A DNA stretch of 64,000 bases from Escherichia phage BEU50, in the sequence record OM632671.1; one strand, written 5' to 3'. The notes beneath the pieces are model-generated. The model was not told the DNA's origin and searched no databases. It worked only from the letters and a program-made list of their open reading frames with translations. This document shows positions 1 through 22,969 of this stretch, piece after piece (positions within the stretch are counted from its first letter, which is position 1; the number at the start of each line of letters is the position of its first letter). A program made the position numbers and the translations under genes.

Positions 1-54
1 CCCTTTTTGCTTTAGATTTTGGATGATAGAATACCTTCATAACGAGGAGACAAC

Positions 55-2672: not shown

Positions 2673-2696
2673 GCTCCTTCGGGAGCTTCATTTTAA
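2672..2696 (+). terminator. rho-independent terminator hairpin AGCTCC-TTCG-GGAGCT plus T-run
   Basis: perfect 6 bp stem, UUCG loop, followed by TCATTTT. Confidence 0.6.
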
Positions 2697-2714
2697 TTTT
2701 AATAAGGCTTAATT

Positions 2715-3815
2715 ATGAAAGTTATGTTTATCCCATCTCGTGCAGTCCCATTTAATCCTGACCGTGTACAAGGTGGTCTTGAAGCGGTTCATTTGAACGT
2801 GTTGAAATATTTAGTTTCTATCGGTGCCGATATTGATTATATCGGCTTTGATAATGACACGTTTGGTGACTGGAAAGTTACACACCATCCTGTTGGTCAT
2901 CTGACTAAATTCAGTCTAGGTATGAGTTATACTATGGCTCGTAAGATTGTTGAACTAGCCGGCATCCATGAATACGATTTTGTTGTTACTATGGAACCGA
3001 CTAAACTAACCGTTCAGGCAATTAAAGACGCAGGTCTCTCTAAAGTTCATAAGAATTTTATGGCAACACCATTTGAACCAGTATCTCGTGGCATTGTTCA
3101 AATTTGGGACCAGACTATTCAAATTCATAAGAATGGCGGTAAGAGTTATGCTCCTACTAAAGCCTTCCGTGAATTTGAACGCAAATATTGTTATATGACT
3201 TCAGGTCTGACTGACAAAATCGATTATGATTATTGGCGAGCAAATCCGTTGTTTGAAGCCGAAGATTATCCGGTTATTTGTTTGACTGAAAAGCCAGAAG
3301 TTCTCCCGGCAACTGATTTGATTATTAGTGCTCAACGTTATGACACTAAGATGCGTCGCACTGATGTTGCTCTTGAAGCAATTAAAGCACTAGGCGAAAA
3401 TGGTGTAGGATACTGTCCTAGTAAATGGGCACCACCAGCTAAATATCCTGTTATTATTGATGCTCCACACAGTGAAATCATGGAACGTCTTAAAACAGCT
3501 AAAGCACTTATTAATACGTGTCCTGACACAGGTACGGTAGAGAATAGTTCTATTGAAGCCATCTCTAAAGGTGTCCCTGTAATCCAGTTAGTTTTTAAGG
3601 ATTATCCTCATGCGACATTTGAATACGACCCAGATACTGTGCGTGTAGAAATTGATTCCTCTACTCCTAAGAAAGAAGTAGTTGCGCTTTACACAAAAGC
3701 TGTATTAGAATTCACTGACACATACGAAGCTCGAGTTAAACGTGCTGAAGCAGTATGGAAGAAGTATAATCGAGATGCAGTTGTTGCGATGTGGGATAAA
3801 ATCTTCACAGCGTAA
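2715..3815 (+). CDS. hypothetical protein, possible GT-B type glycosyltransferase
   Basis: 366 aa ORF; C-terminal E-x7-EA-x3-G-x-PVI pattern (ENSSIEAISKGVPVI); not at a position of any T4 gene I recognise. Confidence 0.5.
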   Translation: MKVMFIPSRAVPFNPDRVQGGLEAVHLNVLKYLVSIGADIDYIGFDNDTFGDWKVTHHPVGHLTKFSLGMSYTMARKIVELAGIHEYDFVVTMEPTKLTVQAIKDAGLSKVHKNFMATPFEPVSRGIVQIWDQTIQIHKNGGKSYAPTKAFREFERKYCYMTSGLTDKIDYDYWRANPLFEAEDYPVICLTEKPEVLPATDLIISAQRYDTKMRRTDVALEAIKALGENGVGYCPSKWAPPAKYPVIIDAPHSEIMERLKTAKALINTCPDTGTVENSSIEAISKGVPVIQLVFKDYPHATFEYDPDTVRVEIDSSTPKKEVVALYTKAVLEFTDTYEARVKRAEAVWKKYNRDAVVAMWDKIFTA

Positions 3816-3831
3816 ATCCTGAATAGCCTGA

Positions 3832-3882
3832 GGCACTATTACACATAAGATGATAGATTATATGGTCTTTAGTAATAGTGCC
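3832..3882 (+). other. long stem-loop (11 bp perfect stem, about 29 nt loop)
   Basis: GGCACTATTAC ... GTAATAGTGCC inverted repeat in the intergenic gap; no T-run. Confidence 0.4.
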
Positions 3883-3907
3883 CTAGGAATCTACTGAAGA
3901 GAATATT

Positions 3908-4108
3908 ATGAGAACATATAACGTGGACTTGGAACTTTTTGATAAAGCAGTGCTCCGGGAATTCCGGCTTATCCAAAGATTTTTTGATATCGAATCAGCA
4001 GAGTCCTTTAAAGAACGCTTTAAAGAAATTCGATATAAAATACAAACCGATACAGCTACTAAAGAAGAACTTCTTGAAGTAGCAGAAATTTTTAAACGTA
4101 ACTTGTGA
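3908..4108 (+). CDS. small hypothetical protein (rIIA.1 position)
   Basis: 66 aa ORF with ATG and upstream purine-rich RBS. Confidence 0.5.
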   Translation: MRTYNVDLELFDKAVLREFRLIQRFFDIESAESFKERFKEIRYKIQTDTATKEELLEVAEIFKRNL

Positions 4109-4120
4109 TGAGAGAAAAAC

Positions 4121-6178
4121 ATGATTATCGAAACGGCTAAAGAAACGATTATTGGTTCTGGTGGTAAGAGCACAGCATTCACTATTCAAGGCAATAGCAA
4201 AGTTTATAAGATTTTGTCTAATGACCTTTATACAAACAAAGAATTGGCTTGTGTACGTGAATTAATCACAAACTGTATCGATGGACAAATTCTTAATGGT
4301 TGCACTGATAAGTTTATTGTTCAGGCTCCAGGTCGTTTAGACCCACGTTTTGTAGTTCGAGACTTTGGTCCTGGTATGAGTGATTTCACCATTCGAGGTA
4401 ATGACGAAGAGCCAGGAATCTATAACTCATATTTTGCTTCAACTAAAACATCGAGTAATGATTTCATTGGTGGATTCGGACTCGGCTCTAAAGCTCCATT
4501 AGCATATACTGATACGTTTAACATTACTTCTTATCATAATGGTGAAGTTCGTGGTTATGTAATTTATCAAGATGACAGTGGTCCACAAATTAAGCCAACC
4601 TTTGTAGATAAGATGGGCCCTGATGACCGTACGGGTGTAGAAGTAGTTGTGCCTGTTAACCCGGAAGATTTTGAAAAGTTCGCATCTGAAATTGCGTATG
4701 TTATGCGTCCTCTCGGCGATATTGCAGAAGTTCGTGGTGTTAAAGATATCAAATACTTCCCGGAATTCGATGATGTTTATTTAGCCAAGGAAGCTCCATG
4801 GGGTGAACGTGGTAATATCATGGCTGTTTATGGTGGTATTGTATATCCAATCGGAAGTGTTATTAAAGAACAAACATGGATGATGACGCGATGCACTACA
4901 GCTTATATCAAATTCCCTATGGGTGAACTAGATGTAGCCCCGTCTCGTGAAGCATTGTCATTTGATAAACGTACAGTAGCAAATATTCATAAACGTGTTG
5001 CAGAAATTGATGCAAAATTATTTGCTGAAGATTCTAAGAAATGGATTGATTGTGAATATCCACGTCATGTATTCCGTGAAATCGATTCTCTTGGTTACTC
5101 TGCTCGTAAATACATGGAAAAAGCCGGTTCTAATATTGAATCACTGAAATATTCTAAAGAACAACTAACTTATTCTGAGTTGTACAAACGTTTTAAAATG
5201 GGACCTGAATGGTGCAACCTTGGCGTTGTATATGATATCGTTTCAGATCCACGACTTCGTCGTATTCGTGAAAGCGGAAGCTCGTCTGCAACTATTTCAA
5301 TTAATAGCCTGCTAGGTATTAGTCGTAAGCATATTGATATTGTTATTGACGATGTGAAAGGCCGCGTACCAATGATGCGTGCTCTGAACGATGCTTTGAC
5401 TTCCACCGATGCATCAACACTCGTTGATAAGGTTCCTTCCGGACGGGGTAGTAGCGTATTATTCATTAACCCGGAAGATGAAGTTGCAATGAAACTTCTG
5501 GAACGATTAAAGGTTATTTTCGCTGGTGATAGCCTTAAATTTTATAAGACCTCTGAAATTCTTGCATTAGTTAAACCATGGATTGAAGTTAAAGAACGTT
5601 CATCGCAGCCTCGTCCTAAATCCCCAAGTGCTCATCGGTTCTTTAAGAATGAAAACGATGTTTGGGTATCAGAAGATCTCTTTATTCCGGCCGGTAAAGC
5701 TGATGAGATTCAAGGTTATGTTGTAATTCGTAATCGTTCTAACGCTGAATGTCTTGACGCAGATAAAGGTTGGTTGAACTATGATTCTAATTTCTTGACT
5801 CGTATTGCTGATTTGTCAGGTATTAAAGAGTTCACTGTAGTCCGTCCACAGATTGCTAAGAAAGTTCGTAAACTTGGTGAAGTAGAATGCTTGTTCGAAA
5901 AATCAATTAATGACTATATTACGCTAATTGATAAAGTGGATTATGATGAGTATGTATCACCAAGTCGTAGAGCACAGCCTTATTTGAATCATATTACTCG
6001 TAACGAAGAGCTTAACTTCCTTAGTAAGTATTTTAGCTCTAAGAACAAAGAAATCAGTAAAGACTTTGCAAAACTCTCAACAGTAAATAATCGCTGGGGA
6101 TGGAATCGATTCGCAGGTGCTGATAACAGAGACCTGAACAGGAAGTTAGAATTGTGCTTAAAGAGGACTCTTTTGTAG
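4121..6178 (+). CDS. rIIA: rIIA membrane-associated protein, 3-prime end ends at a junction
   Basis: 685 aa; GHKL-like boxes ([19 protein letters not shown]); about 40 aa shorter than T4 rIIA as I recall it. Confidence 0.85.
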
Positions 6179-6429
6179 ACCCAGAAATTTTCTACGGTTT
6201 GCGTGCCCGTGAAATTGAAATTGAGCCACAACCTACAGTTAAAATTGAAGGTGGTCAACACCTGAACGTTAACGTTCTGCGTCGTGAAACTCTGGAAGAT
6301 GCAGTTAAGCATCCGGAAAAATATCCGCAATTGACTATCCGTGTATCCGGTTATGCAGTTCGCTTTAACTCTCTGACTCCGGAACAGCAGCGCGACGTTA
6401 TCGCTCGTACCTTTACCGAGAGTTTGTAA
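6154..6429 (+). CDS. GrcA/YfiD-like autonomous glycyl radical cofactor, 5-prime end probably truncated
   Basis: C-terminal RVSGYAVRF glycyl-radical motif, near-identical to E. coli GrcA C-terminal half; only a GTG start available. Confidence 0.75.
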
Positions 6430-6650
6430 TGGCAAAGATAATTATTGAAGGTTCTGAAGATGTGCTAAATGCTTTCGCCGAGTGGTTTAGTAATTCAGGT
6501 GAACAACAATTTAATGAAGCGTGGAATATGGGTGATATTGATGGAATTTATCCTACGACAGAAATTTCTGTTCAGGGATATGGCATTCATGAACCTATTC
6601 GTTTAGTTGAATACGATTTATGTACTGGCGAGGAAGTCAAATATGATTGA
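6429..6650 (+). CDS. hypothetical small protein (vs.5 position)
   Basis: 73 aa ORF, ATG overlaps upstream stop. Confidence 0.5.
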   Translation: MAKIIIEGSEDVLNAFAEWFSNSGEQQFNEAWNMGDIDGIYPTTEISVQGYGIHEPIRLVEYDLCTGEEVKYD

Positions 6651-6909
6651 AGATATTAAGGGTTATAAACCACATACCGACGAAAAAATCGGTAAAGTAA
6701 ATGCTATTAAAGACGCTGAAGTTCGTTTAGGACTTATCTTTGATGCTTTATACGATGAATTTTGGGAAGCATTTGATAGCTGTGAAGATGATGAACTCGC
6801 GAAGAATTACGCCGAAAGCCTCGATCAGTTAACTATTGCTAAAACGAAACTCAAAGAAGCAAGTATGTGGGCTTGCCGTGCTGTGTTCCAACCAGAGGAA
6901 AAATACTAA
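6643..6909 (+). CDS. hypothetical small protein, candidate Vs.4/Acb2-like
   Basis: 88 aa from ATG 6643 with RBS GAGGAAG; assigned by synteny (second ORF before regB) only. Confidence 0.4.
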
Positions 6910-7187
6910 TGGCTCAATTAAGCGCAGGGTTTGGTTATGAGTATTATACTGCCCCTCGTCGTGTATCTGTTGCTCCTAAGAAAATTCAAAGTCTTGATGA
7001 TTTCCAGGAAGTAGTCCGTAACGCTTTCCAGGACTATGCACGCTATCTTAAAGAAGATTCACAGGACTGTCTCGAAGAAGATGAAATTGCTTACTATACG
7101 CAGCGTCTTGAACAGCTCAAAAATCTACATGAGGTTCGTGCCGAAGTTTCAAAGTCTATGAATAAATTGATTAGATTTAAAGAATAA
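6909..7187 (+). CDS. hypothetical small protein (vs.3 position)
   Basis: 92 aa from ATG 6909 with RBS AGAGGAA. Confidence 0.5.
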
Positions 7188-7189
7188 CT

Positions 7190-7219
7190 GTTTACTTTTC
7201 CTCTTGACTGTGGTATAAT
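7190..7219 (+). promoter_or_regulatory. T4-type early promoter
   Basis: GTTTAC, 18 nt spacer, TATAAT; upstream of regB. Confidence 0.65.
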
Positions 7220-7246
7220 TTTTCTATCAGTTAAGAGGAGAATAAC

Positions 7247-7708
7247 ATGACTATCAACACAGAAGTTTTTATCCGTCGAAATAAGCTTCGTCGTCACTTT
7301 GAGTCGGAGTTTCGTCAAATTAACAATGAGATTCGTGAGGCATCAAAAGCAGCAGGGGTCTCATCGTTTCATCTAAAATATTCTCAGCATCTTCTTGATC
7401 GTGCAATTCAACGGGAGATTGATGAGACATATGTTTTTGAATTATTCCACAAAATAAAAGACCATGTTTTAGAAGTTAATGAATTCCTGAGTATGCCTCC
7501 GCGTCCTGACATTGATGAGGATTTTATTGATGGGGTTGAATACCGTCCTGGACGTTTAGAAATCACAGATGGAAATCTTTGGCTTGGATTTACAGTTTGT
7601 AAACCTAATGCGAAGTTCAAAGACCCGTCGCTTCAATGCAGGATGGCAATTATCAATAGTCGTCGTTTACCAGGAAAGGCTTCTAAAGCAGTAATTAAAA
7701 CTCAATGA
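7247..7708 (+). CDS. regB: RegB site-specific endoribonuclease
   Basis: 153 aa, RBS AAGAGGAG; sequence matches RegB as I recall it. Confidence 0.8.
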   Translation: MTINTEVFIRRNKLRRHFESEFRQINNEIREASKAAGVSSFHLKYSQHLLDRAIQREIDETYVFELFHKIKDHVLEVNEFLSMPPRPDIDEDFIDGVEYRPGRLEITDGNLWLGFTVCKPNAKFKDPSLQCRMAIINSRRLPGKASKAVIKTQ

Positions 7709-7715
7709 GGTAAGC

Positions 7716-8261
7716 ATGAGAAAAGCACTACTCGCTGGTCTATTGGCCATTTCAATGATGGCACATAGCTCCGAGCATACTTTCAGTAATGTCCAACTCG
7801 ATAACATGCGTTACGCGTATCAATTCGGGGAACAATTTTCTAAGGATGGAAAATATAAAACACACAAAAACATCCACAAGAGCGGATTGGGTCATATAAT
7901 GGCTGCTATTTTGTGGCAAGAAAGCTCTGCCGGAGTTAATTTAAAATCTAAACCAAAGCATCACGCCTACGGAATGTTCCAAAATTATTTGCCTACTATG
8001 CGAGCGAGAGTTAAGGAACTTGGTTATAATATGACCGATGCTGAAATAAAAAGAATGTTGAATAAACGATCCAATTCAGCTTCCTGGGCGTACATTGAAC
8101 TTTCTTATTGGTTAAATATACATAAGGGCGATATAAGAAAAGCAATATCCTCTTATAATTCGGGATGGAATGTTAAAGCAGGTTCTAAATATGCTTCTGA
8201 AGTCCTAGAAAAGGCTAATTACCTTAAAAATAATAAACTTTTGGAAATAGTAAATGACTAA
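7716..8261 (+). CDS. secreted lytic transglycosylase-like protein (SLT domain)
   Basis: signal peptide; ESSAG, YGMFQ and SYNSGW motifs resembling SLT catalytic motifs. Confidence 0.6.
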   Translation: MRKALLAGLLAISMMAHSSEHTFSNVQLDNMRYAYQFGEQFSKDGKYKTHKNIHKSGLGHIMAAILWQESSAGVNLKSKPKHHAYGMFQNYLPTMRARVKELGYNMTDAEIKRMLNKRSNSASWAYIELSYWLNIHKGDIRKAISSYNSGWNVKAGSKYASEVLEKANYLKNNKLLEIVND

Positions 8262-8595
8262 AATTTTGGTTTTATGTATAGGATTAATTTCATTTTCTGC
8301 GTTAGCAGATACATCATATACTGAAATTAGAGAGTATGTAAACCGTACTGCAGCGGATTATTGCGGGAAAAATAAAGCATGCCAAGCTGAATTTGCGCAG
8401 AAATTAATATATGCATATAAAGACGGAGAAAGAGATAAATCAAGCAGATACAAAAATGATACATTGTTAAAACGATATGCTAAAAAGTGGAATACCTTAG
8501 AATGTTCAGTTGCGGAGGAGAAAGATAAAGCCGCTTGTCATTCAATGGTTGACCGTTTAGTAGATTCTTATAATCGAGGATTGAGTACTAGATGA
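8254..8595 (+). CDS. small secreted protein (vs position)
   Basis: 113 aa with N-terminal signal peptide (…FSALA). Confidence 0.5.
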   Translation: MTKILVLCIGLISFSALADTSYTEIREYVNRTAADYCGKNKACQAEFAQKLIYAYKDGERDKSSRYKNDTLLKRYAKKWNTLECSVAEEKDKAACHSMVDRLVDSYNRGLSTR

Positions 8596-9071
8596 TTGTA
8601 AAATATATCAAGGGCGATATTGTCGCCCTATTTCTTCAAGGTAATATTATTGCGCACGGGTGCAATTGCTTCCACACAATGGGCTCTGGCGTAGCAGGTC
8701 AATTAGCAAGAGCCTATCCCAAAATTTTAGAAATAGATAAAACCACTACCGAGTACGGTTCTCGTGATAAATTAGGCGATATGTCTATTGTTTTTAAACA
8801 TAGTCCTACGGGATTTGGTATATGCTATAACCTGTATACACAATACGAACCGGGTCCTAATCTTGATTATGGTGCTTTAGTAAACTGCATGATAGAATTA
8901 AATCTACAGGCAGAAACCCTTTTGTTTAAACCAGTAATTTACATTCCACGCATAGGTTGCGGTATTGCTGGTGGTGATTGGGATAAGGTTTCTAAATTAA
9001 TCGACATGTTTACTCCTGATATTGATTTAATAGTGGTGGATTATGAAAGTACATTACCCGCATCCGTTTGA
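8592..9071 (+). CDS. macro domain protein (ADP-ribose binding/hydrolase family)
   Basis: 159 aa; IAHGCNCFHTMGSGVAGQ motif typical of macro domains. Confidence 0.7.
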   Translation: MIVKYIKGDIVALFLQGNIIAHGCNCFHTMGSGVAGQLARAYPKILEIDKTTTEYGSRDKLGDMSIVFKHSPTGFGICYNLYTQYEPGPNLDYGALVNCMIELNLQAETLLFKPVIYIPRIGCGIAGGDWDKVSKLIDMFTPDIDLIVVDYESTLPASV

Positions 9072-9255
9072 TCCTAAAAACAAAGTGGAAATTATTCGTC
9101 AATGGGAACGCATTTGCCGTACTAAATGCCCAATTAATAGTCCACATGATGTAGATAAAGACTATATTGGAACATTCGTTGAATATACCTTTATTGATAG
9201 GAAAGGTCGTAAACAACATGTAGAAGAATATTGTTTAAAGGTTACATGGTTATGA
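9043..9255 (+). CDS. hypothetical small protein
   Basis: 70 aa ORF, ATG start, overlaps macro gene end. Confidence 0.35.
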   Translation: MKVHYPHPFDPKNKVEIIRQWERICRTKCPINSPHDVDKDYIGTFVEYTFIDRKGRKQHVEEYCLKVTWL

Positions 9256-9458
9256 GCCAAACTAGTATTCTTAAAAATGCCCATTGTGAAAAGTGTAAGT
9301 GGCCGATTGTTTTTGCTTTATGTAATGATGAAATGGCTTGTGATTTCGATTATTGGTGCTATTGTTCTAATAAAGGATGCATCAATCATAAAGGTGAAGG
9401 ATTTTATTCAGGATTTTATCCTTATCCTGATTTCGTTAAAGAAGGTAAACCGAAATGA
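9246..9458 (+). CDS. hypothetical Cys-rich small protein
   Basis: 70 aa from ATG 9246; CEKC…C…C…C pattern. Confidence 0.4.
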   Translation: MVMSQTSILKNAHCEKCKWPIVFALCNDEMACDFDYWCYCSNKGCINHKGEGFYSGFYPYPDFVKEGKPK

Positions 9459-9628
9459 ATAGTTTTGAGTTACAATATGAAGTGTTACGTGAGCTTGATA
9501 ATTTAATTGAACTCGCTGTCAATAAAGGTTTTGCCATTGGAATCGGTCAAAAAGATACTGGTCATTTAACTATGGAAATATTTAAGCAAAAGCGAATTAT
9601 TTTAAAACTCCTGGAAATTAATATATGA
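9455..9628 (+). CDS. hypothetical small protein
   Basis: 57 aa, ATGA overlap with upstream stop. Confidence 0.3.
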   Translation: MNSFELQYEVLRELDNLIELAVNKGFAIGIGQKDTGHLTMEIFKQKRIILKLLEINI

Positions 9629-9819
9629 GTCTGAGTAAAGAATAAAAAGATAAATTGTTTGAGCTTATCCATGAACTTCTAGATGAGCATGCAGAAGCAA
9701 ACACCTTTTATGATGAATACGGCCCGCTATCTCCCGAACAGCAAGAAGAATTTGCTGATCGGTTTGATAAGAAAGAAAACGAATTAATAGCTTATGTGAA
9801 TATGCTTTAAGAAGGTGAT

Positions 9820-10401
9820 ATGGCGAGTTTAATTTTTACTTACGCAGCAATGAATGCTGGAAAATCTGCTTCTCTTTTGACTGCTGCACATAATTATAAA
9901 GAACGCGGAATGAGTGTATTAGTTCTTAAGCCTGCTATTGATACTCGCGATTCTGTCTGTGAAGTCGTTTCTCGCATTGGAATTAAGCAGGAAGCGAATA
10001 TTATTACAGATGATATGGATATTTTCGAGTTCTATAAATGGGCTGAAGCACAAAAAGATATTCATTGCGTATTTGTAGATGAAGCTCAGTTTTTAAAAAC
10101 TGAACAGGTGCATCAATTAAGTCGAATTGTTGATACATATAATGTTCCTGTTATGGCTTATGGATTAAGGACTGATTTCGCTGGAAAATTGTTTGAAGGT
10201 TCTAAAGAACTTTTAGCGATTGCAGATAAACTTATTGAACTAAAGGCAGTTTGTCATTGCGGCAAAAAAGCGATTATGACAGCTCGATTAATGGAAGATG
10301 GAACACCAGTTAAAGAAGGTAATCAAATCTGTATTGGTGATGAAATTTATGTTTCTTTGTGTAGAAAACATTGGAACGAATTAACTAAAAAGCTCGGTTA
10401 G
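9820..10401 (+). CDS. tk: thymidine kinase
   Basis: 193 aa; P-loop AAMNAGKS; C-terminal Cys cluster. Confidence 0.9.
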   Translation: MASLIFTYAAMNAGKSASLLTAAHNYKERGMSVLVLKPAIDTRDSVCEVVSRIGIKQEANIITDDMDIFEFYKWAEAQKDIHCVFVDEAQFLKTEQVHQLSRIVDTYNVPVMAYGLRTDFAGKLFEGSKELLAIADKLIELKAVCHCGKKAIMTARLMEDGTPVKEGNQICIGDEIYVSLCRKHWNELTKKLG

Positions 10402-10443
10402 TGCAAAAGTTATAAATAGGTTTATCTAACTAAAGGGGTATAT

Positions 10444-10656
10444 ATGCTACAATTAACTGAAAAGCAACTTCGCAATCTTACTGTTCTTCAATTAGATGAA
10501 ATTCGTAGGGAAGTTGGAAATATCATTTCAGCTTTGCGTCGAGAAGTATCACTCAACCAATCTCCGGCAGACTATACTAGATTGCGAAATTTTGAAAAAT
10601 ACCTTGATAAAGTTAAGGCCGTGCATCGGCATAAAGTAAATACAGGACAAAAATGA
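10444..10656 (+). CDS. hypothetical small protein
   Basis: 70 aa ORF in tk-nrdC region. Confidence 0.45.
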
Positions 10657-10668
10657 TAGGAGGCCTTT

Positions 10669-10962
10669 ATGGCCTTAAAAGCAACGGCACTATTTGCCAT
10701 GCTAGGATTAGCGTTTGCTTTATCTCCATCGATTGAAGCGAATGTCGATCCTCATTTTGATAAATTTATGGAATCTGGTATTAGACACGTTTATATGCTT
10801 TTTGAAAATAAAAGCGTAGAATCATCTGAACAGTTCTATAGTTTTATGCGAACGACTTATAAAAATGACCCGTGCTCTTCTGATTTTGAATGTATAGAGC
10901 GAGGCGCGGAGATGGCACAATCATACGCTAGAATTATGAACATTAAATTGGAGACTGAATGA
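10669..10962 (+). CDS. hypothetical secreted small protein
   Basis: 97 aa, RBS AGGAGG, N-terminal signal peptide. Confidence 0.5.
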   Translation: MALKATALFAMLGLAFALSPSIEANVDPHFDKFMESGIRHVYMLFENKSVESSEQFYSFMRTTYKNDPCSSDFECIERGAEMAQSYARIMNIKLETE

Positions 10963-11345
10963 AATTCAGCGACTTTTCACAAAGTGGAAAACCTTCAAAG
11001 GCAGATGAATACTTAGGTTTATTAATGGCTGCACAAGCTTATTTTCATTCTGCGCATTTTGAAACTAAAAGTTATGCTAGACACAAAGCATACGATTTTA
11101 TTTTCTCCGAGTTGCCAGATTTGATTGATAAATTTGGTGAGCAATATTTGGGGTATTCTGGTAGAAAATACACACCTTCAATTCCAGATGCTAGTAAACT
11201 TCCTACCGACACAATTAAAATGATTGATCGCATACTAGACCAATCTAACAGCATTTATAAAGAAATGCCTCCAGCCATTCAAAGCACGATAGATGATATC
11301 ACTGGGATGTTTTATCAGAGTAAATATCTTCTTTCCCTCGAATAA
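10959..11345 (+). CDS. hypothetical protein
   Basis: 128 aa ORF, overlapping start with upstream stop. Confidence 0.5.
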
Positions 11346-11350
11346 CGTTA

Positions 11351-11372
11351 GTCTCCTTCGGGAGACTTTTTT
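11351..11372 (+). terminator. rho-independent terminator GTCTCC-TTCG-GGAGAC plus T6
   Basis: perfect hairpin followed by TTTTTT. Confidence 0.7.
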
Positions 11373-11382
11373 CATTTTACCG

Positions 11383-11412
11383 GTTTACTTTCCATTTGAG
11401 CTGTGATACTAT
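11383..11412 (+). promoter_or_regulatory. T4-type early promoter
   Basis: GTTTAC, about 18 nt, TACTAT. Confidence 0.55.
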
Positions 11413-11440
11413 ACAACCATCGGATAAAGAGGAGAACATC

Positions 11441-11629
11441 ATGAAAATTGAAGCACTTAATCAAGAAGGAAATATCTACGTCATCATTAATGGTGATTTT
11501 TTCGTCGACATGGATGAAGTTACCAGTGAAGAACTTGTAGAACTTCTTAAGAAACGTTATAATATGTGTGATGAAGTTGCAACTCACATGGCGTGTGCAA
11601 TATTCTCTCTTTCATATGTGGTGGAATAA
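11441..11629 (+). CDS. hypothetical small protein
   Basis: 62 aa from ATG 11441 with RBS AAGAGGAG. Confidence 0.45.
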
Positions 11630-11645
11630 TGAAAACTGAAAAGCA
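11620..11645 (+). repeat. 26 nt direct repeat copy 1 (GGTGGAATAATGAAAACTGAAAAGCA)
   Basis: identical 26-mer spanning stop/RBS/start; second copy at 12010. Confidence 0.8.
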
Positions 11646-11832
11646 AGCGGATAAAATTAAGGAATTAGTGGCTTCAATTCGTAAAGCAGATGAAGAGCTG
11701 ATTGACTTTGCTTGGTATTCATCGGGTATTTCGAATAAAGGCATTAAAGACTTTGAAACTAAAGTTGATAATGCTTTAGAAGCGTTAGATATGTTTCTTG
11801 ATGAAATTATCGATCATAATACGAGAGTTTAA
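11629..11832 (+). CDS. hypothetical small protein (MKTEKQ start)
   Basis: 67 aa from ATG inside the 26 nt repeat. Confidence 0.45.
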   Translation: MKTEKQADKIKELVASIRKADEELIDFAWYSSGISNKGIKDFETKVDNALEALDMFLDEIIDHNTRV

Positions 11833-11834
11833 GT

Positions 11835-12029
11835 ATGCTAACACGTGAACAGTTTGAAAAAATCATTAAATTAGCACGTGATGTTGAAATAGATTCATAT
11901 CAATTAGCAGTTGAGCATTGTGAAGGATATTCATACGATGGTATAGAATCAGCTAAAAGGGATTTGGATAAATCTAAAGCTAAGTTAGTCCAATATCTTG
12001 AAATGATTAGGTGGAATAATGAAAACTGA
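11835..12029 (+). CDS. hypothetical small protein
   Basis: 64 aa ORF. Confidence 0.45.
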   Translation: MLTREQFEKIIKLARDVEIDSYQLAVEHCEGYSYDGIESAKRDLDKSKAKLVQYLEMIRWNNEN

Positions 12030-12035
12030 AAAGCA
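12010..12035 (+). repeat. 26 nt direct repeat copy 2
   Basis: identical to 11620-11645. Confidence 0.8.
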
Positions 12036-12192
12036 GATGTTTTTAATGAAACTAATTGAAGAATATGCTAATGCAGTTTCTGACTATGAGCGTTCTTCTC
12101 GGGAAAGAGGTACAGCTTTCGCCAAAGAAGAAATGAAAATCATGGTTGATGCTCACACAAAGCTTCAGAATTTTATTGAAAACAACATTTAA
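12019..12192 (+). CDS. hypothetical small protein (MKTEKQ start)
   Basis: 57 aa from ATG inside repeat copy 2. Confidence 0.35.
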   Translation: MKTEKQMFLMKLIEEYANAVSDYERSSRERGTAFAKEEMKIMVDAHTKLQNFIENNI

Positions 12193-12194
12193 CG

Positions 12195-12224
12195 GTTTAC
12201 AAGTTGGCAAGGTTATGGTATAGT
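12195..12224 (+). promoter_or_regulatory. T4-type early promoter
   Basis: GTTTAC, 18 nt, TATAGT. Confidence 0.55.
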
Positions 12225-12359
12225 AATCTTGTCAACTGTCAAGGAGAAGAGAATGAAAGTTTTGTTTGTTGTGTATGTAATGATTCAATATAATTACCCA
12301 ATGTTTACTTATAATCTGGTGAACAACATTATTGATATTATTCAAAGGAGTATGTAATT

Positions 12360-12590
12360 GTGAGTGAGTCGAAGAGAATCAATATGAAACGATTAGTATT
12401 AGAAGTTAGTCCGCTTTTTGGTGAATTGGCTATAGAAAAAGTAAATAACATGTATCGTTTGACGCAAGAAGACGATATGCTATATTTTACGCCTAGTGAA
12501 ATCATTCATTTAACCCAAATTGAATATCCTTATACTGATAAAATAGTAAGTATCAATGATGAGCACAAAATTCATTGCTCGTTTGATTGA
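12360..12590 (+). CDS. hypothetical small protein
   Basis: 76 aa; GTG start 8 nt after AAGGAG (alternative ATG at 12384). Confidence 0.4.
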   Translation: MSESKRINMKRLVLEVSPLFGELAIEKVNNMYRLTQEDDMLYFTPSEIIHLTQIEYPYTDKIVSINDEHKIHCSFD

Positions 12591-12680
12591 AGTTGAAGCC
12601 CAAATTGCAGAACACACCAAATTGTTAAAAGCTCTTAATGCAAAAGCAAATGGTTTACGTAATGCTATTGAGGTATTGAA

Positions 12681-12995
12681 ATGAAAAAGCGTCTATTAGA
12701 AGACATTGCAGCTTCAAGTAATTCCAGTTTAATTAAAATTATTATGGCCGGTGAAGAAGACGATCTGGAAATGCGTGGAAAGATTTATGGTTGTGATGAT
12801 TATAGCAGCCCTATTAATTGGGATTCTGTAATGGTCATGGTTGAACGTCGCGAAAGGGCTTCTAAAAACGTTCCTAATTGCCCTGAATGTGGAACTGAAC
12901 AGGTGCAATTAGTCCATTGGCAGACTAATAATCTTCGTTATAAATGTCGCCATTGTAAACACCGATTTGACCGAGAAGAAAATGACAAAGCGTAA
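12681..12995 (+). CDS. hypothetical zinc-ribbon protein
   Basis: 104 aa; CPECG…CRHCKH. Confidence 0.5.
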
Positions 12996-13224
12996 AGAAT
13001 ATATGGAGACCGCCGAAAAGGCAGTCCGTGAATTAGCAATAGCTTATTATAATGAACACGGTAAATTTCCTGATAGATACAGCGTGCTTAAATCTGCTTT
13101 AACTCGTTCATATAAAAATATGCTATCAGAAGTAAGTGATATTATATACAAACATAAAGAACAAACGGGCCAAAGTCTTGATTACGACGAGACTTTTAAA
13201 CAAGTACTAGGAATTAAGGAATAA
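12982..13224 (+). CDS. hypothetical small protein
   Basis: 80 aa from ATG 12982. Confidence 0.45.
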
Positions 13225-13225
13225 T

Positions 13226-13489
13226 ATGTTTAAAGTATATGGTTATGATAGCAACATCCATAAATGTGTGTATTGCGATAATGCAAAACGTCTTTTGACC
13301 GTGAAGAAACAGCCGTTTGAATTTATCAACATTATGCCGGAAAAAGGTGTTTTTGATGATGAGAAAATCGCTGAGCTTCTGACTAAACTAGGTCGTGATA
13401 CTCAAATCGGCTTAACAATGCCTCAGGTATTTGCTCCTGATGGAAGTCATATTGGTGGATTTGACCAATTGCGGGAATACTTTAAATGA
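13226..13489 (+). CDS. nrdC: glutaredoxin/thioredoxin NrdC
   Basis: 87 aa; CVYC active site. Confidence 0.85.
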   Translation: MFKVYGYDSNIHKCVYCDNAKRLLTVKKQPFEFINIMPEKGVFDDEKIAELLTKLGRDTQIGLTMPQVFAPDGSHIGGFDQLREYFK

Positions 13490-13701
13490 TTCTCGAAGGA
13501 ACTGATTATATCCATGATTACCGCGGAAGCGCGGTATATGTAGGTGATGAAGTTGCAGTTTACTACGGGTATGGAACTTTGATGACAGCCAAGGTTATTC
13601 AAATTAAAAATAATCGTGCTAAACTCGAAGTTTATTATTCTAACGGCGAAAAGTCTATTTCTAAGTGGAAATACGGCGATTGTATGGTCAAACTGGGGTA
13701 A
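13486..13701 (+). CDS. hypothetical small protein
   Basis: 71 aa, ATGA overlap with nrdC stop. Confidence 0.45.
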   Translation: MILEGTDYIHDYRGSAVYVGDEVAVYYGYGTLMTAKVIQIKNNRAKLEVYYSNGEKSISKWKYGDCMVKLG

Positions 13702-13703
13702 AT

Positions 13704-13874
13704 ATGATTTACGATATTAGTGCAGCAAGAGCTCCATCAATGGTTGCTATTCCAGCTGAAGAATTAGATCGTCTTCATAAAATTGAAGAACTTCTGTGGG
13801 AAATTGAATCTGATTTGCCATCAGGATTAGAATCCTGGATTGATTATGAAGAACTTAATAAGCTTCGGGGTTAA
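13704..13874 (+). CDS. hypothetical small protein
   Basis: 56 aa from first ATG of the 13665 ORF. Confidence 0.3.
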   Translation: MIYDISAARAPSMVAIPAEELDRLHKIEELLWEIESDLPSGLESWIDYEELNKLRG

Positions 13875-13996
13875 ACCCTGGTGGGCGGCTAGATGGGAAA
13901 CTGTAGAGCCAGAGCCGGAAGAACCGGTTTACACTGATGAAGAAACAGTATATAATGAACCAACGATAAATGACTTAATTGATATGGAGATGGGAC

Positions 13997-14482
13997 ATGA
14001 TTACAGTAGATAAGTGGTTTAGAATTAATCGTGTTGATACAGGGCTATGTAATTACTGGCCGGAACTTAGTGCAGGTACTGTCTTTAAAGTTCGTGAACT
14101 TGCAAAAGAATGTGAAGATGATATAGAACCTGATACTGGAATTATTGAAATTGAACTTTCTGATGGAAAGATTATTAACATCTATGATAAGCCAATTACG
14201 TATTGGTGCTTGTGGAATACTGAATCCGTTGAAAATGGCGAAATTGAAGAAGTTGTAGAGAGAACTAGCCAAGATGCTCAGAAGCCTAAAGCCGCTTTTC
14301 AAGGTGAACGTATTTCATACGCATTAGCTAAATTAGCTGCACAAGAAAATAACGATGGTTATGAAGGAAATTTAATGCAAGCTGCCGCAGAGTACATTGA
14401 ATGGCTTGAAACTCAAATTTCTTTTTCTGACCAAATGATTCGGCAATATAAGCGATTGCATCAAATGTTTTACAATACTTGA
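13997..14482 (+). CDS. pin: Pin-like protein (protease inhibitor position)
   Basis: 161 aa from ATG 13997 with RBS GGAGA; length and position match T4 pin. Confidence 0.55.
   Translation: MITVDKWFRINRVDTGLCNYWPELSAGTVFKVRELAKECEDDIEPDTGIIEIELSDGKIINIYDKPITYWCLWNTESVENGEIEEVVERTSQDAQKPKAAFQGERISYALAKLAAQENNDGYEGNLMQAAAEYIEWLETQISFSDQMIRQYKRLHQMFYNT
14408..14482 (+). repeat. direct repeat copy A (3-prime end of pin)
   Basis: two sub-blocks (26 nt and 48 nt) recur at 14483-14510 and 14648-14695. Confidence 0.75.
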
Positions 14483-14695
14483 AAAAACTCAAAATTCTTT
14501 TTCTGACAAGGCATTTTAATGAAAACCGAATTGGTTTATACTGAAAAGTTAAATGGCGGTAAGGTTTGGAAACTTTTTATTAAAGGACATTCTACGGACC
14601 CTCATATGACCACTTGCGTAGGAACCTATTCTCGTCCTACTAAAAAGATGATTCGACAGTATAAACGATTGCATCGAATGTTTTACAATACTTAA
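14483..14695 (+). repeat. direct repeat copy B flanking a 58-codon ORF
   Basis: AAAAACTCAAAATTCTTTTTCTGACA at 14483 and ATGATTCG…TACAATACTTAA at 14648. Confidence 0.75.
14519..14695 (+). CDS. hypothetical small protein sharing Pin C-terminal 15 aa
   Basis: 58 aa ending MIRQYKRLHRMFYNT, the same tail as the pin ORF. Confidence 0.4.
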   Translation: MKTELVYTEKLNGGKVWKLFIKGHSTDPHMTTCVGTYSRPTKKMIRQYKRLHRMFYNT

Positions 14696-14704
14696 ATAAT
14701 AAAT

Positions 14705-14735
14705 ACCCTTATCTATTTAAGGTAAGGGTTTTATT
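14705..14735 (+). terminator. hairpin plus T-run before gene 49
   Basis: ACCCTTA … TAAGGGT stem followed by TTTTATT. Confidence 0.5.
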
Positions 14736-15209
14736 ATGTTATTGACTGGCAAATTATACAAAGAAGAAAAACAAAAATTTTATAATGTACAAAACGGTAA
14801 ATGCTTAATTTGCCAACGAGAACTAAATCCTGATGTTCAAGCTAATCACCTTGACCATGACCATGAATTAAATGGACCAAAAGCAGGAAAGGTACGTGGA
14901 TTGCTTTGTAATCTCTGCAATGCTGCAGAAGGTCAAATGAAGCACAAATTTAATCGTTCTGGCTTAAAGGGTCAAGGTGTTGATTATCTTGAATGGTTAG
15001 AAAATTTACTTACTTATTTAAAATCCGATTACACCCAAAATAATATTCACCCTAACTTTGTTGGAGATAAATCAAAGGAATTTTCTCGTTTAGGAAAAGA
15101 GGAAATGATGGCCGAGATGCTTCAAAGTGGATTTGAATATAATGAATCTGACACCAAAACACAATTAATAGCTTCATTTAAGAAGCAGCTTAGAAAGAGT
15201 TTAAAATGA
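14736..15209 (+). CDS. 49: endonuclease VII (Holliday junction resolvase)
   Basis: 157 aa; CLICQ…CNLC zinc site plus HLDHDHE. Confidence 0.85.
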   Translation: MLLTGKLYKEEKQKFYNVQNGKCLICQRELNPDVQANHLDHDHELNGPKAGKVRGLLCNLCNAAEGQMKHKFNRSGLKGQGVDYLEWLENLLTYLKSDYTQNNIHPNFVGDKSKEFSRLGKEEMMAEMLQSGFEYNESDTKTQLIASFKKQLRKSLK

Positions 15210-16027
15210 ATGTAGTATATAAACTATCATTTATTAATAGAATTAATGCTAAAACCCCACCATATTATTACATTGGAAGTAAAACCAATTGCACTTTTGA
15301 TGGAACGAATATTATTGATAAAAATGGTAAATTTTATTATTCGTCTTCGTCATCTTCTGAATTTCAAAAAGCCTTATTGAAAGAAACGCCGAAAGTTGAA
15401 ATATTATATTTTCAATTAGTCGGAGATGAACAAATAACTAGCATTGAAGCTGAATTTCAAAAGAATATAGAAAAAGATGTATGGAATAAAGAGTATTTTA
15501 ATTTAGCATATGCTGATGGCAAATTTACGACATATGGTATTTCTCCTTCTAAAGAAACTAGAGAAAAGCAATCAATAACCATGATTAAAAGAAATCGTAA
15601 TAAAGGCAAAAATCATGGATTTTATGGAAAGCATCATACTAATTTAGCTAGAAAGAAAATATCAGAAGCTTCTAAAAAATACTGGAAAGAAAATCCACAT
15701 CGTGGATTTTCGCATACAAAGGAAGCTAAAATTAAAATTGGAATTTCATCTTCTATCAGGCATAAAGGAAGTGGAAATCCGATGTATGGTGTAAAACCTT
15801 GGAAAACTCCGAGCGCAATTAAATCTGGTACTTGTATATTATGGTTAAAATACGCAGAAATTTTATATGATTATTTAAGTCCAGATTTTAAAAGTAAATC
15901 ATCTATTTTTGCGGATTTAAACTTACCGAAATTTAGAATTGATAATTTCATCAAAAGGTTTAAAATGGGTTGGAACCCATATTTAGACGAAGAATTTCAA
16001 AAGGATAAATTAGAATTATGTCTTTAG
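15206..16027 (+). CDS. GIY-YIG/NUMOD-type homing endonuclease-like protein (seg-like)
   Basis: 273 aa; VVYKLS…YYYIGSK and repeated GxxHT/NPMYG NUMOD-like motifs; inserted between 49 and nrdD. Confidence 0.6.
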   Translation: MNVVYKLSFINRINAKTPPYYYIGSKTNCTFDGTNIIDKNGKFYYSSSSSSEFQKALLKETPKVEILYFQLVGDEQITSIEAEFQKNIEKDVWNKEYFNLAYADGKFTTYGISPSKETREKQSITMIKRNRNKGKNHGFYGKHHTNLARKKISEASKKYWKENPHRGFSHTKEAKIKIGISSSIRHKGSGNPMYGVKPWKTPSAIKSGTCILWLKYAEILYDYLSPDFKSKSSIFADLNLPKFRIDNFIKRFKMGWNPYLDEEFQKDKLELCL

Positions 16028-17016
16028 AAAAAGATGTTTTAAATTTTATTTCAAATAAAGATAAAGAATTAAATACAGAAAACGCCAACAAAGATTCTCG
16101 CGTCTTTCCAACAAAAAGAGATTTAATGGCCGGTATTGTTTCTAAACATATCGCTTGTCGTATTCTTCCAAGTCATATTGTAAATGCCCATAATGTTGGA
16201 TTAATTCATTTTCATGATTTAGATTACAGTATATCATTGCCTTTTACTAATTGCTGTTTAGTAGATTTAAAAGGAATGCTTGAGAACGGGTTTAAGCTCG
16301 GTAATGCACAGATTGAAACTCCTAAATCAATCGGTGTTGCTACTGCAATTATGGCACAAATTACTGCACAGGTTGCTTCTCACCAATATGGCGGAACTAC
16401 ATTTGCTAATGTCGATAAAGTACTTTCTCCTTATGTTAAACGCACCTATGCAAAACATATCGAAGACGCAGAAAAATGGCAAATCGCCGATGCGTTAAAT
16501 TATGCTCAATCTAAAACAGAAAAAGACGTATACGATGCATTCCAAGCTTATGAATATGAAGTAAATACTCTCTTTAGTTCAAACGGACAGACTCCTTTTG
16601 TAACAATTACATTTGGTACAGGAACTGACTGGACTGAACGAATGATTCAGAAAGCAATTCTGAAAAATCGTATTAAAGGTCTTGGTCGTGATGGGATAAC
16701 TCCTATTTTCCCTAAGCTTGTTATGTTTGTTGAAGAAGGTGTTAATCTTTATAAAGACGATCCGAACTATGATATTAAGCAGCTTGCTCTAGAGTGTGCA
16801 AGCAAAAGAATGTATCCTGATATTATTTCAGCTAAGAACAATAAAGCTATCACTGGTTCATCTGTTCCTGTTTCTCCAATGGGTTGCCGTAGTTTCTTGG
16901 GCGTATGGAAAGATTCGACTGGTAATGAAATTCTTGATGGACGTAATAATCTTGGCGTTGTAACACTGAATCTTCCTCGCATCGCGTTAGATTCTTATAT
17001 TGGAACACAGTTCAAT
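16018..17016 (+). pseudogene. nrdD: anaerobic ribonucleotide reductase NrdD, 3-prime truncated (N-terminal ~333 codons only)
   Basis: NrdD-like sequence to …[17 protein letters not shown]; remainder of the ORF to 17103 is reverse complement of gene 37 start; no glycyl-radical C-terminus. Confidence 0.8.
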
Positions 17017-17150
17017 CCTGAGTCATCTTTTGTGAAAATTGTTTTATCTTTTAAGTTTATAGCCAATTCACCTTCGGCTAATACTGAAGCAGCAGGACGT
17101 TGACCTGCAGTTTTGCTTCTTTTAAATTGTATTTGTTTTAAAGTAGCCAT
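16995..17150 (-). pseudogene. 37: long tail fibre distal subunit gene 37, 51-codon N-terminal stub
   Basis: [13 protein letters not shown]…TKDDSG then LNCVPI-stop; gp37-like only to codon 45. Confidence 0.75.
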
Positions 17151-17158
17151 AAGTCCTC

Positions 17159-17809
17159 TTAATAATAGCCGAAATCTTGAACAGAATCCTTAATTACGAT
17201 TTGGTCAAATCGTGGAACGTGTGAAGGTTGAGATGCAGGATTCTGTGAAAAAAGGTTTGGCGCAGTTAAATTTCCTGTCATAGTGTCTCCAGAGCGTAAT
17301 ACCCTAGAGTTTGCATTTGCTGTAACAGTATTTATTGCTCCATCAACATAATCTTTACGAGTAGCATCTGATGCTGCGGAAGGAGTAGATGTAACAGTTA
17401 CAGATGGAGCCGTTACAGCTTTGGTAAATGTTGTCAAACCTTCTGGCGTAATAGTAATTTGTCCAGTAGTGATTTCACTACCTGCTGGTCTAAAACTAAT
17501 ACCGCCAGAAGAGCCACCAACTACAAGAGTATTACCAGTGCCGCCACCAGAACGAATTCGGATGGGGGTTTCATTATTACTTAATTGAAGATAACTATTT
17601 ACACCATAATTAATAGTAACTGGGCCTGTGTAAGTACCACCAGTAGATTTAGAAACGAAATCATTATCAGCTGCCTGTGGTTTATTATATTCTGAATATA
17701 TTTTAAATGATTTGTAGAGTACATCGTCACCGGCTGAATTCAACGGAAAATTTCCTTGATGCCAAATGACAGATCCACCTACAGTTGAACCTCCTTTTAA
17801 ATCAGCCAT
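17159..17809 (-). CDS. 36: long tail fibre subunit gp36
   Basis: 216 aa; N- and C-termini match gp36 as recalled. Confidence 0.9.
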
Positions 17810-17832
17810 AGTATGCCCATTTATTTTAATAT

Positions 17833-17840
17833 TATTTATA
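17833..17840 (-). promoter_or_regulatory. late promoter TATAAATA
   Basis: TATAAATA on minus strand 24 nt upstream of gene 36 ATG. Confidence 0.6.
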
Positions 17841-17842
17841 AA

Positions 17843-17866
17843 GAAAAAAGGAGCCCGGCGGCTCCC
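17843..17866 (-). terminator. hairpin GGAGCC-GCCG-GGCTCC plus T6 (minus strand)
   Basis: between gene 35 stop and gene 36 late promoter. Confidence 0.6.
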
Positions 17867-17871
17867 TCAGT

Positions 17872-18987
17872 TTAAACTTCTCTAAATTCCTGTCCAAACA
17901 CTTTACCAGTTTTAGACGATGCCTGTGTAGGAAGTACCATTATATCTGGAGGTGAAGCCGATTCACAGACATAATTAACGCGAATACCATTGACGCCAAA
18001 TTCGGCAGGTTTTGAAATGCCGCCATTTCTTGATACTTCAGAAAAGCTTAAATTTCTCATACCGCCTTGACCCGCTTGGGCGGTTCTCTGTGTGTATATC
18101 GTAAATCCTACTGCATTTTCAGGAACAACTACATAATCTTCTTTTAATTCCCAAGACCCAGCTTGCCCAGTAAACTCAGCTTGGGTCGAGGAAATATATC
18201 CATTTGATGCATCATAAAAACGAATAGATATATTTGCAGTTCCAAGATCAAGTAAATCAGCATCAGCATATAGTTGTGCTTTAAGATAAAGAACATCACC
18301 AGGAATTAAATTGTAGTCAGAAAGTTTACTTATAGCAGCTGAAGTTGGTAAACGCGCAATTTCATTATTAGTTCCACCAACCGCAGACATAAATTGCTCA
18401 ACGCTTTCGTATGTTCTTTTAGGAAATCCTGTAGCTCCGACGTCTTCTAAACTATCAAATACAACATCTAAAATAGTTTGATAATCATCTGTGCTTTTTC
18501 TATTACTTAGTTTAACATGCTCTAATGCAATAGCTCTTTTAGAAGAAGTATAAAAAGCAGCATATGACACGTCAAATCTTGACAATACTGAATCTGATGG
18601 AAAAACTGAAGTTCCTGCTCCCCTTAACCAAGATACCACTTCAGGAGGAAAATTAACCTTTCCGCTAGTTAATATAGCAACAAGTCTATTGTTTGACAAA
18701 GAATTCATGAAACTGACAAAAGTGGTAGATGTTGTATTGTTTGAAGCAGAAAAAGCATATGACTTACTATCAACTAATGCTCCCGTAGAAGGGTCAAAAA
18801 CTCTTAAATGAAGACCTGCACTAAATGTTTGATTTCCAACGGGATTATCCTGAAATTTAACATATGGTCCCGCAGTAGAAAGCGGGCAAGAACCCGCTAT
18901 GCTTATTTTATATCTTACTGAATTGCTTTCCGATAAAAATGGCGTTTGGACATATCCTTGTCCAAACTCTGCCATAAATTTTTCCAT
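17872..18987 (-). CDS. 35: long tail fibre hinge protein gp35
   Basis: 371 aa; position and length. Confidence 0.85.
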   Translation of the reverse strand: MEKFMAEFGQGYVQTPFLSESNSVRYKISIAGSCPLSTAGPYVKFQDNPVGNQTFSAGLHLRVFDPSTGALVDSKSYAFSASNNTTSTTFVSFMNSLSNNRLVAILTSGKVNFPPEVVSWLRGAGTSVFPSDSVLSRFDVSYAAFYTSSKRAIALEHVKLSNRKSTDDYQTILDVVFDSLEDVGATGFPKRTYESVEQFMSAVGGTNNEIARLPTSAAISKLSDYNLIPGDVLYLKAQLYADADLLDLGTANISIRFYDASNGYISSTQAEFTGQAGSWELKEDYVVVPENAVGFTIYTQRTAQAGQGGMRNLSFSEVSRNGGISKPAEFGVNGIRVNYVCESASPPDIMVLPTQASSKTGKVFGQEFREV

Positions 18988-18995
18988 AATACCTC

Positions 18996-22865: not shown

Positions 22866-22899
22866 TCTCCCGGGCTCCTATTGTGTTTTCAATAATAAG

Positions 22900-22907: not shown

Positions 22908-22910
22908 CTT

Positions 22911-22940: not shown

Positions 22941-22969
22941 AGAAATCTCACTAATTGAACGAGGTTCAT

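Follow-up and report, generated by a model that had tools for sequence, protein, structure and literature searches.

Deletions in phage T4 usually form between short direct repeats, as described in the rII deletion literature, and the classical ones stay in one genome and spare essential genes; the nrdC.x region is dispensable. Defective interfering genomes are, to our knowledge, not established for T-even phages. De Bruijn and overlap assemblers change from one genome to another only at shared sequence (k-mers). The epsilon2-phages, which are bred mosaic T-even recombinants, are homologous and collinear and have kept all genes (PMC8614997). We analysed a stretch of 64,000 nucleotides from the sequence record of Escherichia phage BEU50 (OM632671.1; the whole stretch is hereafter called the window), in which a block of early genes is bounded by a truncated rIIA on the left and a 45-codon stump of gene 37 on the right. 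Sequence from two genera is patched together in the window, Mosigvirus at 1–6157 and approximately 29,040–64,000 and Tequatrovirus from 6158 to approximately 27,830. It is probably an artefactual chimera in which a Mosigvirus and a Tequatrovirus similar to Shigella phage SHFML-26, occurring together, were mis-joined or concatenated.

The window was compared with reference stretches of the Mosigviruses NRG-P0074, KAW3E185 and a20 and the Tequatroviruses fPS-2, T4, JB75 and SHFML-26, and positions 1–25,000 were searched with megablast against 50,697 phage records. The megablast matches split sharply at 6158 and 17016. Inside this interval they were of T4 type (fPS-2, Killian and others, 95–96%), and outside it they fell on other records. 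The Mosigvirus parts are RB69-like and were 98–100% identical to phages a20 and NRG-P0074. The Tequatrovirus part consists of four non-contiguous pieces (B1, 6.4 kb; B2, 4.4 kb; C, 7.5 kb; D, 3.3 kb), all of which resemble the one phage SHFML-26 (97.7–98.8%) and were only 72–91% identical to Mosigviruses where both were comparable. In total, approximately 21.7 kb of T4-type DNA occupies an interval, from the 3' end of rIIA to nrdB, that holds 28.7 kb in Mosigvirus. The segments were delimited as follows:

1–6157, + strand: segment A, Mosigvirus; best match a20 (98.85%, a single gapless high-scoring segment pair (HSP) over 1–6156)
6158–12576, + strand: segment B1, Tequatrovirus; best match SHFML-26 (98.5%, one HSP)
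12577–17016, + strand: segment B2, Tequatrovirus; best match SHFML-26 (97.8%)
17017–24536: segment C, Tequatrovirus; SHFML-26 98.8% in one HSP across all 7520 nt, the Mosigviruses NRG-P0074, KAW3E185 and a20 only 75–82%
24537 to approximately 27,836, + strand: segment D, Tequatrovirus; JB75 and SHFML-26 94–100%, Mosigviruses 72–91%
27837–29037, + strand: switch zone between D and E; nrdB intron and endonuclease, 99–100% identical in both genera
approximately 29,038–64,000: segment E, Mosigvirus; a20 and NRG-P0074 98–100%, KAW3E185 97.7% (a single HSP of 36.7 kb, window 27254–64000)

The five pieces have a uniform orientation relative to the T-even map; A, C, D and E are collinear with gaps, as are B1 and B2, which belong about 90–110 kb away on that map. 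An earlier note on this DNA had placed an early-gene block at 6150–17016 between rIIA and the tail-fibre genes. The block is present, with its left edge at 6158 and its right edge exactly at 17016. It is composed of B1 and B2, both of T4 type (vs.6'–regB–vs–tk–rI–mobD.x and nrdC–pin–49–nrdD', respectively), and the gene identities that had been proposed for it (vs/regB–tk–nrdC–pin–49–nrdD) were confirmed with Pfam and the annotation of T4, fPS-2 and SHFML-26. The note overlooked that the block is of another genus than its left flank, that it has an internal junction at 12576, and that the tail-fibre segment to its right is likewise of T4 type.

The junctions between the segments were placed by three-way comparison, with the nearest parental type taken for either side. 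Four of them, within 18.4 kb, are blunt and lie inside genes, cutting eight genes within their open reading frames (ORFs), namely rIIA, vs.6, mobD.1, nrdC.3, nrdD, 37, 59 and nrdA.2:

6157/6158, A to B1: rIIA, ending in ATTGTGC, is joined to mid-vs.6, beginning with TTAAAGAGG; microhomology 0 nt
12576/12577, B1 to B2: mobD.1, ending in AATTCATT, is joined to nrdC.3, beginning with GCTCGTTTG; microhomology 1 nt
17016/17017, B2 to C: sense nrdD codon 333, ending in GTTCAAT, meets antisense gene 37 codon 45, beginning with CCTGAGTCA; microhomology 0 nt
24536/24537, C to D: gene 59 codon 19, ending in CAGTTTA, meets mid-nrdA.2, beginning with GTGAGTATT; microhomology 0 nt, and the join creates a TAG stop

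These microhomology values fit random blunt joins, of which about 56% are expected to be without microhomology, and are at odds with repeat-mediated deletion and with homologous exchange. The fusion ORFs extend a few codons into nonsense. At 12576/12577, approximately 8.7 kb (mobD.1'–mobD–nrdC.11 to nrdC.3') is gone compared with SHFML-26. No target-site duplication or terminal inverted repeat was found. The sequences flanking the junctions are not paired by any direct or inverted repeat of 10 nt or longer, and they have no common 10-mer at matching offsets. None of the junctions is at a known homing-endonuclease cleavage site, and the break in nrdD lies past the I-TevII insertion site by about 460 nt. 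With microhomology of 0–1 nt, homologous recombination was rejected for the ends of the block. A transposon or homing cassette was also rejected, since there are no repeats or duplications and no known cleavage site, and ordinary early genes are cut at both ends. Switching in shared sequence with the gene order kept, as in a homologous mosaic, was found at 27837–29037 only and at none of the four junctions, which have the arbitrary mid-gene breaks, lack of microhomology and uniqueness of blunt mis-joins. The shared stretch characteristic of a graph-assembler chimera is present at the D/E switch (1.2 kb) and absent from the four blunt junctions.

The lengths of B2 (4440 nt) and C (7520 nt) are each divisible by 40, and B1 measures 6420 nt when base 6157 is counted with it and 6419 nt otherwise. 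Such round lengths may hint at non-biological cutting, as a post-hoc observation with an ambiguity of 1 nt.

The arrangement was found nowhere else. Among 1142 matching phage records, none holds 80% or more of window 1–25,000 in one place, and no matching record spans 6157/6158 (0/736), 12576/12577 (0/750), 17016/17017 (0/870) or 24536/24537 (0/1147). Every phage-record match at the second of these junctions ends at window position 12576. The piece 17017–24536 by itself is collinear in 497 of 780 matching phage records. A 35-mer across 6157/6158 was absent from IMG/VR, JGI metagenomes and GTDB genomes, and so were a 32-mer (12576/12577), a 33-mer (17016/17017) and a 34-mer (24536/24537) from IMG/VR. 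Two positive controls were recovered. The right half of junction 6157/6158 occurs in three IMG/VR contigs, always after normal vs.6 sequence, and a strain-specific 36-mer from the gp36 region matches contigs in IMG/VR and JGI that are 95–98.8% relatives, whose similarity to the window ends exactly at 17017. That the window consists of separate contigs from these collections, concatenated, is unsupported, as the 36-mer finds 95–98.8% relatives only, on long contigs. The junction-spanning proteins (a 685-amino-acid (aa) rIIA', a 361-aa nrdD' and the mobD.1' fusions) were not found in an index of 153 billion gene products. The exact gp39 protein of the window is present in 38 blocks of this 153-billion-gene index, and the contexts listed for it (5/5) proceed through rIIA (737 aa), rIIB, denB, ndd, 52 and motA.

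The canonical order from rIIA to gene 34 is present in NRG-P0074, KAW3E185, a20, JB75, SHFML-26 and five metagenome or isolate contexts. The window departs from it: codon 679 of rIIA is followed by vs.6, and codon 333 of nrdD by codon 45 of gene 37. A natural variant of the gene order was rejected, since no phage record spans the junctions and all listed contexts of the identical gp39 are canonical; no relative sharing the order of the window was found among the matching phage records or these contexts.

In the Mosigviruses NRG-P0074, a20 and KAW3E185, rIIA is followed by rIIB–denB–ndd–52–motA and, further on, asiA–t–38–37. Gene loss was assessed by tblastn of JB75 and NRG-P0074 proteins against the 64 kb of the window. 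None of rIIB, denB, ndd, 52, motA, asiA, t, 38, 32, frd and td was found in it, rIIA is covered over residues 1–681 only, and gp37 and gp59 are present only as stumps (residues 1–45 and 1–19, both 100%). Intact copies of 32, 59, 37, 38, motA, asiA, t and 52 were found nowhere within the window. Between A and C, 12.1 kb is lost compared with NRG-P0074 (the 3' end of rIIA, rIIB, denB, ndd, 52, motA, asiA, t, 38 and most of 37), and between C and D, 6.4 kb is lost compared with SHFML-26 (59, 32, frd.x, frd and td). The non-homologous joins remove 18.5 kb including essential genes. The block therefore stands in place of rIIB, denB, ndd, 52, motA, t, 38 and 37, as had been noted earlier, with a gp37 stump alone left in the window, and the loss from 59 to td pointed out in the same place is real and belongs to a fourth blunt junction of the same kind (24536/24537).

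By established T4 genetics, gp32, MotA, AsiA, the holin (t) and gp37/gp38 are indispensable and act in trans. Because 32, motA, asiA, t, 37 and 38 are absent, the window cannot on its own be the genome of a T-even phage that forms plaques, and a free-living phage with this stretch as its only copy would not be viable. The earlier view that it is not a self-sufficient T-even genome is borne out by the absence of the expected genes.

An assembly chimera, an engineered or deletion construct and a defective element had all been proposed for the block. These options frame the question well, and the evidence leans to a chimera, because the pieces come from two genera, the mid-gene joins are blunt and free of homology, and the junctions are seen nowhere else. 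It is further supported by the sole homologous switch, which sits in a 1.2-kb stretch that is 99–100% identical in both parents. The parents would be a Mosigvirus like a20, NRG-P0074 or RB69 and an SHFML-26-like Tequatrovirus in one mixed sample, and the 28.7-kb interval from rIIA to nrdB of the Mosigvirus would have been replaced by B1, B2, C and D, butt-joined at arbitrary points within genes. The mosaic map, the bluntness and uniqueness of the junctions and the gene losses are observations; we infer that the four blunt joins are artefacts, which would stem from sequence handling and not from the biology of the phages. They could have arisen when contigs from a mixed lysate or metagenome were mis-scaffolded, or were ordered by hand or along a reference, and the gaps between them closed up. 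Chimeric long molecules are another possible source, as is deliberate splicing in silico. The shared nrdB intron, where the sequence goes back to Mosigvirus, is the classic spot for an assembler to swap strains. The rearranged block is most likely not a genuine new phage genome type.

Several points weigh against an artefact. The four homology-free joins need a route other than graph assembly; scaffolding, ordering, chimeric molecules or splicing must be invoked because graph assemblers need shared k-mers. The single orientation and the collinearity of A–C–D–E and of B1–B2 would be rare under random ligation or contig concatenation, and random ligation of sheared fragments is disfavoured by the uniform orientation and near-collinear order. 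The breakpoints lie off the boundaries of inter-strain divergence, where contigs usually end, and parental sequences remain conserved past the breaks, so that contig ends at divergence boundaries are unsupported. Within the pieces the sequence is of high quality, with intact ORFs. Overall, the pattern looks like three deletions and one transposed block.

A real molecule, namely a defective inter-genus recombinant from a co-infection of a Mosigvirus and a Tequatrovirus that depends on a helper, would account for the consistent orientation and the near-collinear order as deletions and a transposition on one molecule, and also for the intact ORFs and the high sequence quality. It would have formed by several illegitimate joins (e.g., through exchange of topoisomerase subunits or ligation of ends cut by endonucleases) together with a homologous crossover in the nrdB intron, and for its replication and packaging it would need a helper that provides gp32, MotA, AsiA, holin and gp37/38 in trans. 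Every missing function is a trans-acting protein according to established T4 genetics, the net loss of DNA is tolerated by headful packaging, and the D/E switch is a bona fide homologous site adjoining a mobile intron. We nevertheless consider such a recombinant, the strongest competitor of the artefact reading, unlikely. Four independent homology-free events would be required in 18 kb of one molecule, and the microhomology is 0–1 nt, whereas short direct repeats are usual in T4 deletions. No break is at a known homing-endonuclease site, that in nrdD is on the side expected to be resected, there is no sign of a selective advantage, and the junctions are unseen in any collection searched. T-even co-infections recombine readily, as in the bred mosaic phages, but those recombinants were reported to be homologous and collinear (PMC8614997). 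Somewhat less likely again is the more specific proposal that the record is a faithful copy of a helper-dependent defective hybrid of Mosigvirus and Tequatrovirus, with at least three homology-free joins and a 10.9-kb early-gene block transposed into the rIIA–37 interval, which would persist in mixed T-even populations by trans-complementation.

An engineered or in-silico construct, whether a deletion or cargo construct or a synthetic test chimera, appears improbable. Eight genes are destroyed without discernible design; the window has no vector or marker, no recombination site and no in-frame fusion made by design; and a molecule without 32, 37, 38, motA and asiA has no obvious laboratory purpose. 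The parents, moreover, are unpublished natural variants, 96–100% identical to database sequences and never exact over long stretches. What speaks for a construct are the perfectly blunt, scar-free joins, the absence of the sequence from all public collections searched, and the lengths of B2 and C (4440 and 7520 nt), each divisible by 40, together with that of B1 (6419 or 6420 nt). Such round lengths only suggest in-silico cutting and do not prove it, being post hoc with a 1-nt ambiguity, and base 6157 is explicable by an NRG-type allele. Since only 64 kb of the genome is visible, one might also think of a viable rearranged phage in which rIIB–37 and 59–td have been relocated beyond the window. 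This has hardly any probability, as the junctions truncate rIIA, nrdD, 37 and 59 instead of moving intact genes, and the reciprocal products would be truncated too. In all records examined, the Tevenvirinae show strict synteny in this region, and the block and its left flank come from different genera.

The left flank, segment A, contains the following genes:

55–1875, + strand: gp39
1860–2672, + strand: homing endonuclease ORF, directly after gp39
after the homing endonuclease ORF, + strand: a 366-aa ORF, then rIIA.1
4121–6157, + strand: rIIA, truncated after codon 679 of 737; the reading frame runs on to a stop at 6178

The rIIA of segment A was 98.4% identical to that of RB69, and segment A was 90.8% identical to NRG-P0074 over 1–2056. 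The homing endonuclease ORF is also found in a20, phi25-307 and several metagenome contigs, and is absent from KY608965.

The main features of the early-gene block are:

6158–6429, + strand: vs.6' (GrcA-like), the 3' 272 nt only, with the first 91 nt lost
7247–7708, + strand: regB (B1)
9820–10401, + strand: tk (B1)
10669–10962, + strand: rI (B1)
ending at 12576, + strand: mobD.1', the 5' 205 nt (B1)
starting at 12577, + strand: nrdC.3', the last 113 nt (B2)
13226–13489, + strand: nrdC (B2)
about 13997–14482, + strand: pin (B2)
14736–15209, + strand: gene 49 (B2)
15206–16027, + strand: NUMOD3 homing endonuclease (B2)
16018–17016, + strand: intron-less nrdD, truncated after codon 333 (Pfam NRDD positions 1–293 of 562 only)

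The complete order in B1 (6158–12576, + strand) is vs.6', vs.5–vs.3, regB, vs.1, vs, tk.4–tk.1, tk, rI.1, rI, rI.-1, mobD.5–mobD.2 and mobD.1'. The segment corresponds to T4 63828–57624, was 96.7% identical to fPS-2, and gave Pfam matches to REGB_T4, TK, Antiholin and Gly_radical. B2 (12577–17016, + strand) consists of the nrdC.3' tail, nrdC.2, nrdC.1, nrdC, 49.x ORFs, pin, 49, the NUMOD3 endonuclease and nrdD', with Pfam matches to Glutaredoxin, Endonuclease_7, NUMOD3 and NRDD. It matched SHFML-26 at 97.8% and 92%, with 99.4% over window 16500–17016, and fPS-2 and T4 at 96–97%.

At window positions 6245–6419 (175 nt), the DNA of vs.6' was 97.7% identical to the chromosomal grcA of all complete E. 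coli genomes (5426/5426), and host grcA was the sole match returned from these genomes. The gene is of very recent host origin and already carries a GrcA annotation in T4. The NUMOD3 ORF stands free between gene 49 and nrdD, as in fPS-2; it is not found in T4 or SHFML-26. The nrdD of the window has no intron, and fPS-2 and T4 have the I-TevII intron at window 16553/16556.

To the right of the block, the following features were identified:

17016–17150, − strand: gene 37, first 45 codons (segment C)
17159–17809, − strand: gene 36 (C)
17872–18987, − strand: gene 35 (C)
18996–22865, − strand: gene 34 (C)
22955–23887, + strand: rnh, then dsbA and 33 (C)
24478–24534, + strand: gene 59, first 19 codons (C)
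from 24537, + strand: 3' end of nrdA.2' (segment D)
24621–24947, + strand: nrdA.1 (D)
24938–27202, + strand: nrdA (D)
27254–27943, + strand: nrdB exon 1 (D)
28074–28883, + strand: nrdB intron endonuclease ORF (switch zone)
29038–64000: nrdB exon 2, denA, 63, alc, pseT, cd, 31, rIII, 30, alt, 54, 48, 29–25, uvsY, uvsW, hoc, 24 and 23, collinear with the standard map (segment E)

Segment C was 97.3% identical to JB75, and exact-protein look-ups of gp34, gp35 and gp36 of the window gave no match. Segment D and the switch zone were compared in 300-nt steps with the Tequatrovirus and three Mosigvirus references. Identity of D to JB75 and SHFML-26 stayed within its range except for SHFML-26 at step 27237 (85.9%), and window 24537–25200 was 99.4% identical to JB75. 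An nrdA of the Mosigvirus (NRG-P0074) type was rejected, as this sliding comparison showed it to be of Tequatrovirus type. In the switch zone, SHFML-26 and a20/NRG-P0074 both matched at 99.3–100%; past it, the Tequatrovirus references drop to 67–82% and a20 and NRG-P0074 remain at 98–100% (NRG-P0074 99.0% over 42001–64000). The switch from D to E is homologous because 27837–29037 is near-identical in both genera, and it could be a real crossover or a strain switch by an assembler. While the intron is near-identical between the genera, the adjoining exons differ by 10–25%, which suggests a recent spread of the nrdB mobile intron between Mosigvirus and Tequatrovirus. An Rfam scan returned no family at the gathering score and reported no group I intron at 27837–29037.

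The source record probably mixes two phages, and the stretch is unsuitable for inferring gene order, gene loss, host-range modules or inter-genus gene flow in T-even phages. If the junctions were real, co-infecting T-even genera would yield multiply rearranged, helper-dependent genomes by homology-independent joining. These would be the first documented cheater or defective interfering-like genomes, and the first inter-genus illegitimate recombination, in T-even phages, and would bear on the origin of hyperplastic regions and new gene orders in the rigidly syntenic Tevenvirinae.

Among known systems, classical T4 deletion mutants such as r1589 share with the window a gene-fusing deletion that ends inside rIIA. 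They differ from it in that the window has microhomology of 0–1 nt, joins between genera, and the loss of 32, 37, 38, motA, asiA and t. Deleted viral genomes of the defective interfering or helper-dependent kind are similar in having a large internal deletion of trans-complementable genes with the rest retained, whereas the window has multiple unrelated joins. Natural or bred mosaic T-even recombinants (the epsilon2-phages and exchanges of tail-fibre modules) also combine stretches from different parents, and the exchange at the nrdB intron in the window looks like theirs; its joins, however, are non-homologous and cut genes, with homology at a single switch out of five. Among these categories the window comes closest to the inter-strain chimeric contig. 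It departs from such contigs in that four of its five switches are without shared sequence and its pieces keep their map orientation, but it resembles them in the alternation of two co-occurring relatives, the switch at the nrdB intron in a shared stretch, the one-off arrangement and the loss of essential genes.

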